Assembly: GCA_041483895.1 (NCBI GenBank) | Contig: JBGPGO010000008.1 | Coordinates: 64,001 to 128,000 of the forward strand | Reading direction: 5' to 3' | DNA from: Fimbriimonadia bacterium | Lineage (GTDB): Bacteria > Armatimonadota > Fimbriimonadia > Fimbriimonadales > JABRVX01 | DNA length: 64,000 nt | Part shown: positions 1 to 7,469 of the stretch, one piece after another | How positions within the stretch are numbered: the first letter of the stretch is position 1 | How the letters are laid out: every line of letters begins with the position of its first letter | Position numbers and translations under genes: made by a program | The notes under the pieces: model-generated | The model's database searches: none | Seen by the model: only the letters and a program-made list of their open reading frames with translations | What the model was told of the DNA's origin: nothing

Positions 1-728
1 CGCGGGGTTTTTTTGCCGATCCGGTGCGGGCGCTGTTCCCGCCGGAATCGATCATCGAGCGGTTCCGGTTCGACGGCTGCGTTTCGAATTGGGCGGATGT
101 GGAAGGGGCGTTGCGGTTGCTGGCCGATCGGTTGGGCAAGCGCCTGGCCGATCGGGATCGGCAGGGCCAGCGCATGGTGATCGTTTTGGAGACTGGGGGC
201 GCTCCCTCGCGTCTGGAGCGCATGTTCGCCCGTCCCATCGCCACCCCTTCCGCCGCCTTCGCGGCGATGACGTTGATGGTGAAAAACGCCTTTGACGATA
301 CGATCGTCAATGAAAAAACAAAAAACAAAAATTTCATTGACGATCGCATCGTCAAATCCACTCCCAATGATGCGACCGGTCTCCTGACCGAGTCGCAAGT
401 TCCTCCGGGGTCTCCTGACCGGACAAACGACGGGCGGTCAGGAGACCTAAAGAATGGTTGCGACTCGGTCGGGAGACCGGTCGCATCGATTGAGTCGCAC
501 TGTGAAGGGGCCATCCGCGCCATCCGCATCCTGATGCCCGGCCTGGAAAAGACCGACCGCGCCCAACCCAATCTGCTGGAAAGCGTGCCGGAACGGAGGC
601 GGAGGCTGATGATGGAACGCATCATCCGCACCTTCCGCTCCCGTTACGGCGACCGCTCCATCCGCCCGGCGCGCGAGGTCCCCGTCCCGCGGCGATTGCA
701 AATCCTGCGAGAGTGGCAGCGTGGATAG
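1..728 (+). CDS. imuB: ImuB/Y-family polymerase-like protein, C-terminal part (5' truncated by window edge), with in-frame palindromic insertion
   Basis: Frame is open from position 3. ERFRFDG...ALRLLADRLGKRLADRDRQGQRMVIVLE resembles the little-finger/IMS_C region. The stop overlaps the dnaE2 start, the typical imuB-dnaE2 arrangement. Confidence 0.7.
   Translation, partial: RGFFADPVRALFPPESIIERFRFDGCVSNWADVEGALRLLADRLGKRLADRDRQGQRMVIVLETGGAPSRLERMFARPIATPSAAFAAMTLMVKNAFDDTIVNEKTKNKNFIDDRIVKSTPNDATGLLTESQVPPGSPDRTNDGRSGDLKNGCDSVGRPVASIESHCEGAIRAIRILMPGLEKTDRAQPNLLESVPERRRRLMMERIIRTFRSRYGDRSIRPAREVPVPRRLQILREWQRG
291..510. repeat. In-frame mosaic of REP-like palindromes inside imuB
   Basis: Inverted doublet of TTGACGAT-NNN-ATCGTCAA (292-310, 337-355); inverted doublet of GATGCGACCGGTCTCCTGACCGAGTCGCAA (369-398, 458-487) with an inner hairpin; half of CCCTTCACAGTCGCACTGTGAAGGG (493-510). 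Confidence 0.9.
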
Positions 729-3700
729 CCCCGCAAGGAAACGAATATTGGAGGGCTCCGCTCCGTCGGAGCCGCAGATTGCCGTCTGGCGCGAGGCGGG
801 GCGGTGGTGGGACGGCGAGGCGTATCGCGAATTCCGCCGCTTCTTGGACGAGCGCGGCATCCAGCGGGAGAGCGTGGACGAATTTCCATCCCTCAGCCGG
901 GCGCTCTCGGAGAGGATGGAGGAGCAGCCGTACGAGGAGGACCATCGGGAGGAGTGGGCCTTCCGCATGCGCAAGATCCGGGATGAAAAAGTCGCCCGCG
1001 CCAACGGCTGGCTCCCCCGCGACGATGCGACCGGTCTCCTGACCGAGTCGCAAGTTCTTGACGATGCGATCGTCAATGAAAATATTAAAAATGTAGGCGC
1101 GGGTCAGATTGACGATTCGCCACCGATTGCCGACAACCAAGACCCGCGTAACCCCGTTGGAAATTCCGTCCCCCTCGGATCAAAAAATGTAGGCACGGGT
1201 CGGATTGACGATGCCCCGCCGATTGCCGACAACCAAGATGCGATCGTCAATGAAAAAACCTCTCCCTTCACAATAGGGATTGTGAAGGGAGAGAAAAACT
1301 CTCACCTACAGCCAGATTCCTCGCAAGCTCGGAATGACAACTCCCCTTCACAGTGCGACTGTGAAGGGATAAAAAGCACCATATCGTATGTATCCATCCC
1401 TTCACAGTCGCACTGTGAAGGGGACAACGATGCGCCGGGGTTCTCGTCTACCGAATCCGTACGTCCGCCGACCACCCAGACCCCGGCGCAACCCTGTCTC
1501 CATGTGCTCAGTGGATACAGCTTCGGCAGAAGCTCCATGCTCGCCGAGGAGATCCCGGTCCTGTGCGCCGACATGGGTATCCCCGCCGTCCTCGTCGCCG
1601 ACATCTTCTCCCTGACCGGCGCGATGGAGCATTCCAAAGCCGCCAAAAAGGCCGGAATCAAACCGCTGATCGGCGCCACCTTCGAGATGGCCGAAGGCGG
1701 CGAGATCGTCCTCGTCGCCCGCACCCGGAATGGCTATCGGAGCCTCTGCCGCCTGATCTCCGAGTGCCACTTAGGCGAGCCGCGCCTCTTCCCCCTATGC
1801 ACCTGGGAGCGGCTGGAGCGGCACCGCGAAGACCTGCTCTGCCTCACCGGCGGGCACCCCGGCCTGATCAGCCGCCTCCTGCTCGCGCAAAAATATGGCG
1901 AGGCGAATACCGTAACGCGCCGACTGATCGATCTCTATGGCCGCGATAATGTCTTCATACAGATCGAGCGCAGCTACTATCCGTTCGAAAAGGCGCTGGA
2001 GGGGCGGCTGCTGGAGCTGGCCTCCCATTGCGGCGTGCGCCCCGTGGCCGGCGGACCGATCACCCATGCCAAATTCGAGCACTTCCCGGCGCAGGACGTG
2101 CTGATCTGTATAGATACCCTTTGCGCGATTGAAGAAATTGACGGGCGCAAGCCGGGCAGGAAACAGGGGCAAACGCAGGTCGAAGGCCCCCCTCGCCGCG
2201 CCCTCAACGCCGAGAGATATCTGCACAGTCCCGCCGAGATGCGCGCCCTGTTCGTCGACCGGCCGGATTTGCTGGAAAACACATGGGCGGTGGCCGAGCG
2301 GTGCGACCCATGGGTGATGCCGCCCCGGACGGAGCTGCCGAAGCTGTACCCGGACGAGTTCGCCACCCTGCGCGAAATCACCTATGCCGGCGCGCGCGCC
2401 CGCTATCCCAAAATCGGCAGCAGCCTGCACCGCCGCATGGAAAACGAGCTGAACCGGATCGAGCAACTCGGCTTCGCGGGGCATTTTCTGGTCGCGTGGG
2501 ATATGTGCCGGTGGGCGCGGGAGAACCGGATTCTGTTCAGCGGTCGCGGGTCGGTGGTGGATTCGGTGGTGGCGTTTGCTCTTGGCCTTTCCCGCATCGA
2601 CGCGCATCACCACAACCTGCACTTCGATCGCTTCCTTCCCGCAGATGGGTCCAAAAGGCCGGATATCGACATCGACTTCGAGGCCGCCAAACGCAACGAC
2701 GTGCGCGAATATCTGACGAAAAAATATGGCGAAGATCATGTGGCCACCGTCGGGGCGGTGGGGGCCTACTGTTCGCGGGGAATCGTGCGGGAGGTGAGCA
2801 AGGTGTTCGGCATTCCGCCGGAAACGATCGGCTATTTTGCCAAGCGCATCCACGGCGGCGTCAGCCCGGACAACCTGCGCGCCTCCCTCAAGGCCCGGCC
2901 GGAACTGCGAAACAGCAACATCCCGGCGGACCTGTTCGAGTGGGTGTTCGCCCTCAGCCCTCTTCTCATGGATGTGCCGCGAAACATGCGCTCCCATTCG
3001 TCCGGCGTCGTGATCTCCCGAACGCCGATCATGGACACGGTGCCGGTCCTCATCTCCGGCCTGGACTCCGTAAAAATTATGCAGTGGGACAAGCGCAGCG
3101 CCAAGCATGTGTTCGACAAATTCGACGTGCTCTGCCTGCGCGGGCAAGACGTGCTGGGGAGGACCCAGGAGCAGATCCGGCTGTTCGAGGATTTCGATGT
3201 GGAAGACATCTCGCTGGAGGACCCGGACACCTACGCCACCATGCGATCGGGGCATCTGATCGGCGTGCCGCAGTCGGCCTCTCCCGCGATGCGGCAGGCG
3301 CACGTGCGGCTGGGGACGATGGACCTGAAGGACGCCAGTTTGGTGCAGGCGGGCATCCGGCCCGGCGTGGGCGGGGCGGTGAAGATCAACGAATTGATCG
3401 CGCGGCGGCGGGGCAAGCCGTACAGCTTCCAGCATCCCAAATTGGAAAAAATTCTGGGCCACACCTATGGGATTATCGTTTTTCAGGAGCAGGTGGACCA
3501 ACTGCTGCAGGAGTTCGGAAACTATACGTCCGGCGAGGCGGAGGCGACGCGCGAGGCCATCTACGAGAAGCGGCGGGAGAAATACGCGGCGCAGATTAAA
3601 GAGGAGGTGATCTCGCGGGTACTGGCGCAGGGATACGCGCAGTCGGTGGCGGAGGAGGTCTATGATTTAGTTTCCGGATTTCAGGGATATGGGTTTGCGG

Positions 3701-5256
3701 AGGGGCACGCGCTGGCGTTCGCGGAGATTTCGATCCGCTCGGTCTGGTGCCAGCAGCACTATCCGGCGGAGTATTTCGCGGCGCTGCTGAACTCCCAGCC
3801 GGCGGGATATTACGGCCCCTGCACGCTGGCGAACGAGGCGCGGATTCGGGGGGTGAGGATGCTGCCGGTGGATGTGAACGCGAGCGGGTTGGAGTTTTCG
3901 GTGGAGGATGTGCGGTCGGAGATGGACCCTCGGTTGATCCTTCCTCGCGCCGGCATCCGCGTGGCCCTTCACCAGATCAGCGGAGTGTCTTCCGACACCC
4001 TGACCCGCATATCCTTAAATGGGGTCTTGGATTTCATTGGCGATCGCATCGTCAACATCCCTTCACAGTGCGACTGTGAAGGGATAGGAGATGTGTTGGG
4101 GTCCTCGCCTGCCGGATCCGACCGAATGCCAATAAGCCCAGACCCCAACACCGGCATCATCACCCCGGATTTCATTGACGATGCGATCGTCAATGAAAAC
4201 TCCCCTTCACAGTCGCACTGTGAAGGGATGGAGAGACTCCCTCCCCCTTTTTCCGGCGCTGCCCGTTCCCCTGCGCCGGAAAAAGGGGGAGGGTTGGGGT
4301 GGGGGTTTGAATTCTCGATGCGCCGGGGTTCACTGTTACCGACTCCTCCCGATTGCCAACAACCCAGACCCCGGCGCTATACCTCTTTCTTCGACTTCGT
4401 CGCGCGGGTGCGGCCGGCGCGGGACGAGTTGGAGCGGCTGATCCTGTGCGGCGCGCTGGACAGCCTCCACCATAACCGCCGCGCGATGCTGTGGGCGATT
4501 CCCTCGGCGCTCAACTACGCGAGCAGCGTCGCCCCTTCACAGTGCGACGACGATGCGATCGTCAATGAAAAAGTATCTTCCTTCACAATGGGGATTGTGA
4601 AGGAAGAAAAAAATGATGCGACCGGTCTCCCGACCGAGTCGCAAGTTTCTTCGCGGTCTCCGGACCGATGCGGCGACTCGGTCGGGAGACCGGTCGCATC
4701 TATATCGGCTTGCGACTCGGTCAGGAGACCGGTCGCATCCGTAAGCCCAGACCCCAACACCCTCCCCCTCACCAACACCGAACCCCCCATGCCGATGGAC
4801 GTGGCGGATTTTCCCGAGCAGGAAAAGGCGATCTGGGAGCGCGACATCCTTGGCATGGACGTGCAAAAGCACCTGATGGCCTGGGAGCGCGAGCATGTGC
4901 AGGCGCGCGGCGGCATCACGGGAGCGCAGGCGATGGCCTCCAAGGACGGGACGAAATGTTTCGTGGTCGGCCATCCGATCCGCCTGCGCTTTCCCCCGAC
5001 GCAAAGCGGCCGCCGCGTGGTGTTTTTCGATCTGGAAGACGAGACGGGCCTCTTAAATGTGACCTGTTTCGATGAGACCTATCAGCGATATGGGCACGCG
5101 ATTATCTGCAATCCCTATGTGACGGTGGTGGGCATCGCGCAGGCGCGGGACAACTATATGGGATTTTTGGCCGAGAAAATTTTCCCCTACCGCGCCAACC
5201 TCCGCAACTTCACAACCACCCTCCCGCTCACGATGGCAGATTTTCTCGTTAGGTAA
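721..5256 (+). CDS. dnaE2: Error-prone DNA polymerase III alpha subunit (DnaE2/ImuC), 1511 aa, with three large repeat-derived insertions
   Basis: PHP start LHVLSGYSF, SGRGS, catalytic RPDIDIDF and KFDVL, YGFAEGHA, LNSQPAGYY, OB-fold FFDLEDETG. Lies downstream of the imuB-like gene. Confidence 0.92.
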   Translation: MDSPARKRILEGSAPSEPQIAVWREAGRWWDGEAYREFRRFLDERGIQRESVDEFPSLSRALSERMEEQPYEEDHREEWAFRMRKIRDEKVARANGWLPRDDATGLLTESQVLDDAIVNENIKNVGAGQIDDSPPIADNQDPRNPVGNSVPLGSKNVGTGRIDDAPPIADNQDAIVNEKTSPFTIGIVKGEKNSHLQPDSSQARNDNSPSQCDCEGIKSTISYVSIPSQSHCEGDNDAPGFSSTESVRPPTTQTPAQPCLHVLSGYSFGRSSMLAEEIPVLCADMGIPAVLVADIFSLTGAMEHSKAAKKAGIKPLIGATFEMAEGGEIVLVARTRNGYRSLCRLISECHLGEPRLFPLCTWERLERHREDLLCLTGGHPGLISRLLLAQKYGEANTVTRRLIDLYGRDNVFIQIERSYYPFEKALEGRLLELASHCGVRPVAGGPITHAKFEHFPAQDVLICIDTLCAIEEIDGRKPGRKQGQTQVEGPPRRALNAERYLHSPAEMRALFVDRPDLLENTWAVAERCDPWVMPPRTELPKLYPDEFATLREITYAGARARYPKIGSSLHRRMENELNRIEQLGFAGHFLVAWDMCRWARENRILFSGRGSVVDSVVAFALGLSRIDAHHHNLHFDRFLPADGSKRPDIDIDFEAAKRNDVREYLTKKYGEDHVATVGAVGAYCSRGIVREVSKVFGIPPETIGYFAKRIHGGVSPDNLRASLKARPELRNSNIPADLFEWVFALSPLLMDVPRNMRSHSSGVVISRTPIMDTVPVLISGLDSVKIMQWDKRSAKHVFDKFDVLCLRGQDVLGRTQEQIRLFEDFDVEDISLEDPDTYATMRSGHLIGVPQSASPAMRQAHVRLGTMDLKDASLVQAGIRPGVGGAVKINELIARRRGKPYSFQHPKLEKILGHTYGIIVFQEQVDQLLQEFGNYTSGEAEATREAIYEKRREKYAAQIKEEVISRVLAQGYAQSVAEEVYDLVSGFQGYGFAEGHALAFAEISIRSVWCQQHYPAEYFAALLNSQPAGYYGPCTLANEARIRGVRMLPVDVNASGLEFSVEDVRSEMDPRLILPRAGIRVALHQISGVSSDTLTRISLNGVLDFIGDRIVNIPSQCDCEGIGDVLGSSPAGSDRMPISPDPNTGIITPDFIDDAIVNENSPSQSHCEGMERLPPPFSGAARSPAPEKGGGLGWGFEFSMRRGSLLPTPPDCQQPRPRRYTSFFDFVARVRPARDELERLILCGALDSLHHNRRAMLWAIPSALNYASSVAPSQCDDDAIVNEKVSSFTMGIVKEEKNDATGLPTESQVSSRSPDRCGDSVGRPVASISACDSVRRPVASVSPDPNTLPLTNTEPPMPMDVADFPEQEKAIWERDILGMDVQKHLMAWEREHVQARGGITGAQAMASKDGTKCFVVGHPIRLRFPPTQSGRRVVFFDLEDETGLLNVTCFDETYQRYGHAIICNPYVTVVGIAQARDNYMGFLAEKIFPYRANLRNFTTTLPLTMADFLVR
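748..776. repeat. GGAG-prefixed short palindrome TTGGAGGGCTCCGCTCCGTCGGAGCCGCA in the dnaE2 5' region
   Basis: Stem GGCTCCG/CGGAGCC; related copies at 24103-24184. Confidence 0.65.
1021..1490. repeat. dnaE2 in-frame insertion 1: palindrome mosaic
   Basis: Units at 1024-1053, 1058-1076, 1261-1292, 1312-1339, 1344-1368, 1398-1422 and 1432-1489, plus a ~56-bp direct repeat 1087-1142/1183-1238. Ends just before the PHP motif. Confidence 0.9.
4031..4378. repeat. dnaE2 in-frame insertion 2: palindrome mosaic
   Basis: Units at 4037-4055, 4059-4083, 4093-4151, 4170-4198, 4203-4227, ~4237-4305 (CCCTCCCCC...GGGGGAGGG) and 4320-4377. Interrupts the HhH region just before YTSFFDF. Confidence 0.9.
4532..4760. 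repeat. dnaE2 in-frame insertion 3: palindrome mosaic
   Basis: Chimeric unit 4533-4570, then 4576-4607, 4615-4644, 4673-4700, 4710-4739 and a half element at 4741-4760. Lies in the linker before the OB fold. Confidence 0.9.
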
Positions 5257-5275
5257 CGCTGGCATCTTGCCGGCA

Positions 5276-6340
5276 CTATCGACCCGAAGGCTTCGCACCT
5301 GAATGAAAATAAGTGATCGTCCGCGAGATGGCCGGGAGATCGTCGACGAAACCCTCACCATTAATCCATGATCGGTCAGTGCCCATCTGCAAGGTCCAGT
5401 TTCCATGCCTATCGTACTTGTACTCGTACAACATTTCCCAGTCCCGACTTCCATCTTCGTTGTAGCCATTGCGCGAAACAACATTTCCGTACTGATCATA
5501 TCGCTCCACCTTCATCATCCAGGCCTTCCCATCCGCCTCATACGACGTCATCGTCACGGTCCGCGCATCGGGAGAAGAGTCTTCAACAATCTTGGAGCCT
5601 GATTCGGTGTCCGTTAGCGTCCTGGACCTGAGCGTTCCATTTGGATAGTACACGAAATCCTCCACCTGCTTTCCACCATATCGACTGAAGTGCGAAACTA
5701 GCAGTCCACCAGCAACACCATATCGACGTGTCTCATCAATTTGTACGGATCCGCCGAAATCACCAGACGAAAACAATTTTGCATAATGACAAAACTGTTC
5801 GAAACCATCCGCCGTGCGACTCCATCTCCATGAGCCGCGTTCCGTCTTTTCGCCAGAATCATAGGCCTCGTAGGATTTCCGAAGATGATGACCATTGTCA
5901 TATTCGAAAGTCTTGATTGACCCATATGATGCGGAAATGCTAAGGAGGTCTCCCGTTGGCGAGTATTTGTATGTTATCGTGGATTCGGGGGATCCATCCC
6001 TAAACTCCTCCTCGATAATCGGCCGGTGCGAAGCGTCGTAATGATAAACGCACTCATAGAAGCTTTTCCGGCACGCAGGCACAGATTGGGATAGCTGAGA
6101 TAGCTTGATCATAGTGCCGCGCCGATCATACGTTAGTTCGCGCTGAACAGTCCAATGAGCCTGCTCGTTCTCACCATCCCGCGTCTCTTCGACGACTTGC
6201 CGGACAGGTCCACGGAGGTTCTCATCCTTGGCCATTGGAAATAATTCGGGAGGATTGATCGGCTCGATGTTCTTCGGCCATTGAGGTTGCGCGGCGGCGG
6301 ATTGCAGCAGGAGCAAGAGCACCATCATCTCATAACTCAC
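5276..6340 (-). CDS. Secreted YD/RHS-like repeat protein
   Basis: Signal-peptide-like N-terminus; LRGPV motif; YxYD repeats; C-terminal YKYDRHGNW...RTITYF. Paralog of the adjacent gene. Confidence 0.75.
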   Translation of the reverse strand: MSYEMMVLLLLLQSAAAQPQWPKNIEPINPPELFPMAKDENLRGPVRQVVEETRDGENEQAHWTVQRELTYDRRGTMIKLSQLSQSVPACRKSFYECVYHYDASHRPIIEEEFRDGSPESTITYKYSPTGDLLSISASYGSIKTFEYDNGHHLRKSYEAYDSGEKTERGSWRWSRTADGFEQFCHYAKLFSSGDFGGSVQIDETRRYGVAGGLLVSHFSRYGGKQVEDFVYYPNGTLRSRTLTDTESGSKIVEDSSPDARTVTMTSYEADGKAWMMKVERYDQYGNVVSRNGYNEDGSRDWEMLYEYKYDRHGNWTLQMGTDRSWINGEGFVDDLPAISRTITYFHSGAKPSGR

Positions 6341-7392
6341 TTGTAGTACTCGATAGTTCGTCGGACCGCCGCCAGTTCTTCATCGGAAACCTCGCCATCG
6401 GGATAGGTAGTGCGGTTGGACCCAGTGCGCAAAGTCCAATTTCCGTGCGAATCATATGTGTAGTGGTAGACCTGATCCCACGTCATCGCGTCATCGCCGC
6501 CAGATGTGCGGCCCTTACGAGTCAGCTCATTACCATATTTGTCGAACGTCACCACCTCCGATATCCACTGTTTTCCACCTCTCTTCATCACGACCGTTGT
6601 TAACGTCCGGCCATCCTTCGATCGAATCTCCTTATAATCCATCTTCTCGTCCTCATTCGTGATTTTGGTATAACCCTTGCCGACTAGATCGTACGTGCAC
6701 TGCTCTCCGACGTCTCCTTCCGGACCGGTAAGCCTCGTACTCACAAGTTTTCCGCTATTCGTATAAACCCTCACCTCGATTACTTCAGCAAAGGCAACGG
6801 CATGTCCCGATGAAGTGACCATTGTATAGTGGCATTGCTGCTGAAACCTTCCAACGGGAAGGCGCTTCCACTCCCAAACGGCACCTCTCAGCCGCTCGCC
6901 ATGATCGCCGATTTCTGATGACTTAATGACATGATGATCCTGATCATAGGAGTATGTTGTGATCCAAGACGTGTTCTCGCCCGTTGATGTCATTATGGAC
7001 TCGACGAGCCCTCCCCACGAATTGAATTTGTACGCGCACCGACGCCAGCAATGGCCGTTGTCTGAATACTCGATGCCCTCAGTCTGTCCCAGCTTGTCAT
7101 AACTGTATTTTGTCGTTCGGAACCCTTTGTCTCCAGCACGCATCATATCGATCATGCGCACCCGCTCTTCTGTCATGTGGCCGGTTCGGTTGTAAGATGA
7201 CTCTTTCGTTATTCGCCATTCCGGAGGCTGATCCGGTGTCTTCTCATGCGTCTCGACACGGACCTTTGAGACGGGTCCGCGTAGATTTTCATCAGCAACC
7301 TCCGGAACAAGCTTCGGAATGTTGATGGGCTCGATGTTCTTGGGCCAGGGAGCTTGGTTTTGAATGACGAGAGCGAGAAGCGTCAGCAGCAT
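6337..7392 (-). CDS. Secreted YD/RHS-like repeat protein
   Basis: Start reassigned to ATG 7392 (AGGAGG upstream). Shares WPKNIEPIN...DENLRGPV and YDxHGNWT with the neighbour. Confidence 0.75.
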   Translation of the reverse strand: MLLTLLALVIQNQAPWPKNIEPINIPKLVPEVADENLRGPVSKVRVETHEKTPDQPPEWRITKESSYNRTGHMTEERVRMIDMMRAGDKGFRTTKYSYDKLGQTEGIEYSDNGHCWRRCAYKFNSWGGLVESIMTSTGENTSWITTYSYDQDHHVIKSSEIGDHGERLRGAVWEWKRLPVGRFQQQCHYTMVTSSGHAVAFAEVIEVRVYTNSGKLVSTRLTGPEGDVGEQCTYDLVGKGYTKITNEDEKMDYKEIRSKDGRTLTTVVMKRGGKQWISEVVTFDKYGNELTRKGRTSGGDDAMTWDQVYHYTYDSHGNWTLRTGSNRTTYPDGEVSDEELAAVRRTIEYYK

Positions 7393-7469
7393 GATGATTC
7401 CTCCTGACTGGTGGGACGAATGAGCTCCCGTAGCGTTCCGCTCAATCGACCATCGGCTATACTCCATTC

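Follow-up and report, generated by a model that had tools for sequence, protein, structure and literature searches.

Reading frames of REP-type hairpin repeats within genes of a Fimbriimonadia bacterium: a heavily loaded DnaE2-type polymerase gene and a genome-wide association with low peptide charge

Introduction

When short hairpin repeats insert into protein-coding genes, each copy is translated in one of several frames, and it is not obvious what decides which. This question is raised by a 64,000-nucleotide stretch of DNA from a Fimbriimonadia bacterium (GenBank assembly GCA_041483895.1, contig JBGPGO010000008.1, positions 64,001 to 128,000; hereafter the window), in which an ImuB-like gene and a gene for a DnaE2-type DNA polymerase III alpha subunit (together, the operon) carry four in-frame repeat blocks, one in the former and three in the latter. 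An earlier note, made from the letters of this DNA, had proposed that complete units of four repeat families (here A, B, C, and D) are always translated in the same frame, and had offered as reasons either selection on acidic, Cys- and His-bearing peptides or copying between insertion sites that preserves phase.

Genes of this kind have been found to receive repeats before. Di Nocera, De Gregorio, and Rocco (2013, PMC3733652) described intragenic repetitive extragenic palindromic (REP) sequences tagged with GTAG or CGTC and named dnaE2 as a repeated target; supplementary file 3 of that paper lists dnaE2 inserts of 29-81 amino acids in O. terrae, S. wittichii, R. palustris, and E. litoralis. 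The locus studied here is a heavily loaded example of this published event. With regard to the frames, the explanation that we consider probable is that the repeats inserted at random into tolerant loops and then came under purifying selection against Arg-rich peptides, the surviving peptides being passengers without specific function.

Results

Reading frames at the locus and across the genome

The readings reported for the individual copies at the locus are accurate. Family A is found in one frame in 7 of 7 copies (FDDTIVN, IDDRIVK, LDDAIVN, NQDAIVN, IGDRIVN, IDDAIVN, and DDDAIVN at 292, 337, 1058, 1232 [a half copy], 4037, 4175, and 4547, respectively); family B reads PSQ(C/S)(D/H)CEG at 1345, 1399, 4060, and 4204 and, in half copies, at 493 and 4532; family C reads DATG at 369, 1024, and 4615 and, inverted, DSV at 460, 4673, and 4712; and family D reads FTxGIVK at 1265 and 4580. 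Because each of the four blocks (Table 1) is stop-free in only one of its three sense frames, these copies count as four sites and not as about twenty independent ones; with two open frames available, four sites would all agree with p=0.125. The word "always" over-read four constrained sites, and it does not hold: two copies of a fifth family, E, that are 79% alike occupy different frames within the DnaE2-type gene, and families B and C are each found in more than one frame genome-wide. Use of both stop-free frames across the genome, which the earlier note had taken as speaking against its own claim, is seen for family B and, in part, for family C.

Across 21 repeat families, 136 of 835 units lie within called genes, family C being unusual in having 57 of its 122 copies there. 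The host genes are real, as 33 of 36 scanned proteins have a Pfam match, including homologues of era, ffh, trmD, hemN, mutY, and plsY. Outside the operon, full family B copies read LHSxTVKG in five genes and PSQxxCEG in two, and no credible copy of family A or D was found in called genes; two family A matches in other genes (FDDLIFT and FDDGIGD) were dropped as chance two-mismatch matches. Five frames are represented among the 48 complete family C copies, which lie in 29 genes (28 DATG, 8 TRSG, 6 LRLG, 3 CDRS, and 3 CDSV; these counts exclude one weak 100-codon open reading frame on contig C23). The first family C copy reads DATG in 19 of the 29 genes, compared to 10.0 expected from the open frames of each cluster itself (p=1e-4) and to 22% when intergenic clusters are randomly placed (p=7e-7).

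Shared frames could reflect copying that preserves phase, whereby fixed composites or gene conversion between sites would pass on one founding frame. Some sub-blocks fit this description: the 119-bp family C dimer of block 1 has near-identical intergenic twins (96.7% identity to G000:C7:130064-130184 and 94% to C6:99564-99683), the A+D pair recurs at two sites with 87% identity over 67 nucleotides (nt), further junctions are also common to sites, and neighbouring units in the operon are co-phased in 8 of 8 pairs. The dimer has a single open sense frame, in which its two ends read DATG and DSV, respectively; three of its six frames are open, and two of these give DATG plus DSV. By contrast, intergenic neighbours are co-phased in only 22 of 60 pairs (p=0.59 vs one third), compared to 20 of 23 pairs in other genes; as the preferred frames were defined from genic data, the intergenic figure alone serves as a free control. 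Because tandem pairs of one family within genes share phase trivially, neighbours from unlike families were tallied separately; 12 of 13 such genic pairs are co-phased vs 11 of 24 intergenic ones (p=0.011). As intergenic pairs share phase about one third of the time, phase-preserving copying is not general; moreover, spacers vary by site, the frame of family E differs between two sites of one gene, and copying cannot account for a bias across 29 unlinked genes. This part of the earlier proposal thus stands for the dimer twins and the A+D pair, and frame uniformity at the locus is increased by dimers and pairs having been copied locally; as a general cause it is already refuted, and as the explanation of the frames it is improbable.

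Peptide charge as predictor of the frame used

The choice among stop-free frames was analysed with a conditional model covering 21 repeat families and 56 genes, with the operon excluded; the charge model leaves out two families, one of which is a protein repeat and the other a simple tandem. Net charge was the best single predictor (twice the log-likelihood difference, 2dLL, of 37), compared to 20 for dicodon score, 21 for end-word phase (with two terms), and 12 for codon adaptation, while hydropathy (0.4) does not predict the frame in this model. The excess of low-charge frames is genome-wide: of 64 genic clusters, 41 are read in the open frame with the lowest charge vs 18.0 expected, and the mean charge of used frames is -0.063 vs +0.046 +/- 0.017. 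Eight of nine family groups agree on low charge (p=0.039), and the charge effect persists when the two largest families (p=2e-5) or the N-terminal sites (p=2e-7) are left out, at strictly internal sites (p=1.3e-4), and beyond codon usage and end-word phase together (p=0.005). A charge test on the DnaE2 inserts of relatives, in which 41 of 45 fell below their open frames, is not used as support; core segments behaved alike (-0.004 vs 0.076), so the test does not discriminate.

The predictive value of end words raises the alternative of phase-biased insertion, i.e., joining at a short target or microhomology (e.g., GATGCG, encoding Asp-Ala) whose occurrence depends on codon position. GATGCG occurs at sense codon positions 0, 1, and 2 with values of 0.33, 0.04, and 0.17, near the 20:3 ratio of DATG to CDRS, and end-word phase by itself reaches a 2dLL of 13-20. 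However, such insertion predicts that antisense LRLG should nearly equal DATG (0.26 vs 0.33), when 3 vs 19 are observed and intergenic family C copies have no orientation bias (15 vs 13); charge also improves the fit beyond end words (p=0.005 to 2e-6). In addition, the RAYTs (REP-associated tyrosine transposases) described so far, guided by GT[AG]G, are reported to cleave at dinucleotides located on the 5' or 3' side of the hairpin in the accounts available to us (Quentin 2018, PMC6006769; Corneloup 2021, PMC8266576). We therefore regard phase-biased insertion as unlikely.

Selection could also act on translation, through rare codons such as AGG-AGA and CGA, instead of on peptide charge. DATG does have the top codon score among the open family C frames, with a codon adaptation index (CAI) of 0.77 vs 0.53-0.66, and CAI reaches significance by itself in the full set; nevertheless, it fits worse than charge, adds little to it, and is not significant at strictly internal sites (p=0.10), which makes this explanation quite improbable.

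A number of observations weigh against selection on charge. The A/B/D group, which comprises three of the four families of the earlier note and is the sole dissenting group, goes in the opposite direction outside the operon (+0.094 over 4 clusters), family B being mostly found in the cationic frame LHSRTVKG. Three of 16 operon units are read in a low-ranked frame that is cationic or neutral (CDSVRRPVA, CDSVGRPVA, and MRRGS), and no RAYT was seen beside family A or D at the RAYT loci inspected. Statistically, end-word phase and codon usage somewhat improve the fit once charge is included (p=0.035-0.067); in GC-rich DNA, charge, codon usage, and "gene-likeness" are correlated with one another; ordinary coding DNA has the same frame contrast; same-family copies are not independent; and the gene set consists of 3364 genes called with our own dicodon script. 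Finally, no empty sites were found. Sequencing reads from 4 of 22 runs, compared over window positions 1-5400, included none, the longest pieces having 0-1 differences; one 117-nt piece within the family C dimer has 7 differences, and the read variants lie within repeats and probably derive from copies at other sites, so this read comparison is uninformative.

Inserted peptides and the case for function

The inserts of the DnaE2-type protein add about 330 residues from at least seven repeat families. They are rich in Ser, Pro, and Asp, carry a net charge of -6.8 per 100 residues, and contain 2.8% Cys and 0.8% His, compared to 3.0% His in the core. In an AlphaFold2 model of the last 491 residues, the predicted local distance difference test score is below 50 across both inserts, although shallow alignment depth also lowers it there, and the surrounding domains have high confidence; the inserts are thus modelled as low-confidence loops between confidently folded domains. 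The linkers that hold the blocks are variable: unrelated inserts cluster at the same linkers among 120 homologous proteins and in 30 of 81 aligned loci, the present one included.

These data bear on the idea that the acidic, Cys- and His-bearing peptides (PSQCDCEG and DDAIVN) are functional and positively selected, with roles such as binding metal or tuning the polymerase. The repeat load of the DnaE2-type gene (13 units vs at most 4 in any other gene), the acidity of its inserts, and the restriction of families A and D, among called genes, to the operon are consistent with this idea, and Di Nocera et al. (PMC3733652) speculated that such inserts alter repair enzymes. On the other hand, the Cys coefficient in the frame model is negative, frames that contain Cys being under-used across the genome; the inserts are depleted in His; and the choice of C/S and D/H in family B merely tracks the orientation of the palindrome. 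Relatives have none of these peptides, bearing unrelated inserts or none at the same sites, and the model predicts no fold for the inserts, a result to which the few aligned sequences also contribute. Selection for metal-binding peptides has no support, and a positive function of these peptides is highly improbable. Selection on the peptide, as proposed earlier, survives only in the sense of a negative filter; since low net charge best predicts the frame used, "acidic" was right in direction, and "Cys/His-bearing" was not.

Repeat families and RAYT genes

Each of families A to D forms a single stem-loop (-6.9 to -13.8 kcal/mol) with a unit size of 19-30 bp. Families A and B have a TCGCA loop in common, and A, B, and D are near-perfect palindromes that follow a word ending in TC (TTTC, NATC, and TCTC, respectively), with family C starting in a constant GATG. 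None of the four has a canonical 5' GTAG/GTGG or CGTC tag at the foot of its hairpin; they bear other tags. The exact repeat patterns are confined to this genome (1 of 41 and 1 of 228 genomes searched; for family A, 1 of 228 genomes of the class).

Seven genes in the genome score above the NCBIfam cut-off for RAYTs. One of these (G000:C12:73418-73951, 85 bits) has inverted family C copies on its flanks and another (G000:C5:229681-230248, 92.9 bits) has family B copies and close variants; both exceed the cut-off of NF047646. Because each flanks its own RAYT gene, families B and C appear, on sequence grounds, to be REP-type elements, REP-like yet lacking a canonical tag. The units share with REPs the short hairpin, many mostly intergenic copies, a RAYT with inverted copies (B and C), an inverted dimer, and a narrow taxonomic range. 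RAYT homologues in 8 of 400 other genomes of the phylum have different flanking repeats or none.

Several further arrangements were seen around these elements. At G000:C12:73091-74104 (L155, L156), a tandem array of GATG-tagged family C units lies on one side of the RAYT, with inverted copies at its opposite flank, i.e., a REPtron with a non-canonical tag. A second RAYT (G000:C6:123209-123730, L165), 47% identical to the C12 enzyme, is flanked by the TGTGTYGGGGTCCTCG family, which also occurs at window position 4090, where it reads DVLGSS. Four related RAYTs (G000:C5:229681-230248, L142; and C6, C21, and C27, L143, L139, and L140) are flanked by TC-tagged palindromes, and in three of the four the final codons of the gene extend through the repeat (STGGPVE). 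As CGTC-type repeats were judged to be without a dedicated transposase by Di Nocera et al. (PMC3733652), these RAYTs may be relevant to that conclusion. Family C is densely clustered at G000:C7:98796-132757, with 21 copies on contig C7, several of them within neighbouring genes. A family B copy provides the final codons and stop of two genes (G000:C9:17337 and C2:101336; LHSATVKG followed by the stop). The G-rich hairpin AACCCTCCCCCGCAAGCGGGGGAGGGG (e.g., G000:C5:43889 and C27:3988) reads NPPPQAGEG in 14 of 15 genic copies, a frame bias exceeding that of every family in the earlier note; it often adjoins a family C unit, with varying spacers.

Host genes and neighbouring features

The DnaE2-type protein has PHP, NTPase, finger, split HhH, and OB domains and the catalytic aspartate motifs PDIDIDF at 647 and KFDVL at 800. 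HHH_6 matches it in two stretches, consistent with the split by block 3. Its closest homologues, mostly of about 1170 residues, are 53-67% identical across residues 260-1100; those named are from Fimbriimonadaceae or Armatimonadota, and several are annotated as error-prone DNA polymerase. A second dnaE on contig C18 is 30% identical to it and contains no repeat unit. The protein has the features of the DnaE2 class (PHP, NTPase, HhH, OB, the catalytic aspartates, and a separate replicative dnaE elsewhere); its PRK05672 score of 546 bits lies below the curated cut-off of 939. The ImuB-like gene matches NCBIfam DNA polymerase IV models (best E 9e-16, every score under cut-off), and a Pfam scan of its product gave no match. 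The genes preceding it are on the opposite strand, and an imuA-like open reading frame was not recognised upstream of it in a search limited to the locus, not extending to the rest of the genome.

Table 1. Positions in the window of the two host genes, the four repeat blocks, and selected repeat units
Feature	Position	Strand	Remarks
ImuB-like (Y-family polymerase-like) gene, 3' part	1..728	+	Open reading frame; start ~447 nt before window
DnaE2-type DNA polymerase III alpha gene, 1511 aa	721..5256	+	Assigned by domains, homologues, motifs
Block 1, ImuB-like gene	286..512	+	A, inverted A, C dimer, half B; net charge -4
Block 2, DnaE2 linker preceding PHP	1021..1491	+	~142 extra residues; net charge -14; C, A, 56-nt tandem pair, half A, D, another hairpin, B, B, E
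Block 3, splits HhH domain	4024..4380	+	~114 extra residues; A, B, GATG-tagged hairpin, A, B, G-rich hairpin, E
Block 4, linker preceding OB fold	4530..4765	+	~71 extra residues; half B, A, D, C dimer with two inverted copies
Family C 119-bp inverted dimer (REPIN-like)	369..487		Folds as one long hairpin
Family E copy, reads DAPGFSSTES...	1428..1489	+	62-nt pair
Family E copy, different frame, reads MRRGSLLPTP...	4316..4377	+	62-nt pair; counter-example within gene
Family A palindrome (DDAIVN)	1058..1076		51 genome matches
Family B palindrome (PSQCDCEG)	1345..1367		78 genome copies
Family C unit, bulged hairpin, 5' GATG (DATGLLTESQ)	1024..1051	+	122 genome copies
Family D palindrome (FTIGIVK)	1265..1288		26 genome copies; arms related to B

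Other features of the locus include a conserved N-terminal extension of about 90 residues (WREAGxWW...E; window 721-1020) that precedes PHP and is common to the DnaE2-like protein and its relatives; it has no match in NCBIfam or Pfam. Two similar secreted beta-rich proteins are encoded on the - strand in the place where imuA could be expected, upstream of the ImuB-like gene (L154:224-856 and 887-1456). Two paralogous-looking secreted proteins of 354 and 376 residues, with a WPKNIEPIN start and YD-repeat-like, are encoded directly 3' of dnaE2 (window 5276-7467, - strand).

Discussion

Random insertion followed by purifying selection, the explanation that we favour, would proceed as follows. REP-type hairpins would have spread in the lineage by means of RAYT (TnpA-REP) enzymes, landing in genes at no fixed codon phase. 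An insertion would survive only if the frame is kept, no stop is added, and the loop is tolerant, as is seen for the four blocks; open frames that give Arg-rich, cationic, or Cys-bearing peptides would then be lost more often, and neutral or acidic disordered peptides would build up, the frame bias itself being statistical and selective loss its presumed cause. In the very tolerant linkers of DnaE2, successive arrivals and local duplications, each under the same filter, may have piled up the extra residues found there, and certain sub-blocks probably came, or were copied, as ready-made dimers.

The elements resemble those of Di Nocera et al. (PMC3733652) in that they are short tagged hairpins found as singles, dimers, and clusters and in frame in linkers of known genes; they differ in their tags, which are GATG (C) and NNTC-like (A, B, and D) instead of GTAG or CGTC, and in the larger load carried here. 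In the parts of that paper available to us, GATG has no occurrence, and its main text does not discuss frame choice, charge, or arginine; its supplement does include O. terrae rows with favourite frames (VAGVADPG, VGPALAAG, and GTGVPPV), and by an eye count of these rows roughly 33 of 52 O. terrae GTAG-19 units are in two Arg-free frames. As in the REPtrons and REPINs of other bacteria (PMC6006769, PMC8266576, in the portions accessible here), there is a RAYT between inverted hairpins, a 5' tetranucleotide, a bulged family C stem, inverted dimers within one genome, and REP insertion that preserves frame; unlike those REPtrons, with their canonical GT[AG]G guide, the present genome has a GATG family and a TC-tagged perfect palindrome beside RAYTs, both of which are absent from these descriptions.

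Palindromic repeats that are translated in frame in conserved proteins are also found in Rickettsia, where one such element, RPE-1 (for Rickettsia palindromic element), is reported to use a single frame throughout. RPEs are 105-150 bp long and are described as each encoding a conserved peptide (Ogata 2000 and 2002, as summarised in the reviews PMC10969869 and PMC2229807), and in guanylate kinase, according to the same summaries, an RPE is apparently neutral or slightly harmful. The units described here differ from RPEs in being 19-30 bp long, in using several frames (two for B and five for C), and in having a RAYT in the genome. Literature searches, in sources partly accessible, found no charge or frame rule and no GATG-tagged REP; the primary papers on RPEs may already state a frame preference.

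The measured rule for the surviving frame and the non-canonical REP tags may be new. A wider generalisation is conceivable but doubtful, namely that bacteria keep loop insertions of any family mainly in the frame of lowest positive charge, that the acidic disordered residues added to DnaE2 might tune DNA or clamp binding, and that GATG- and TC-type sequences are non-canonical RAYT tags. If true, intragenic REP copies would amount to a natural saturation experiment. A frame rule that holds elsewhere would provide a direct read-out of the de novo peptides that proteins tolerate and would explain recurring repeat-derived peptides without invoking function, and the GATG- and TC-tagged repeats that adjoin RAYT genes would broaden the known guide sequences of these enzymes.

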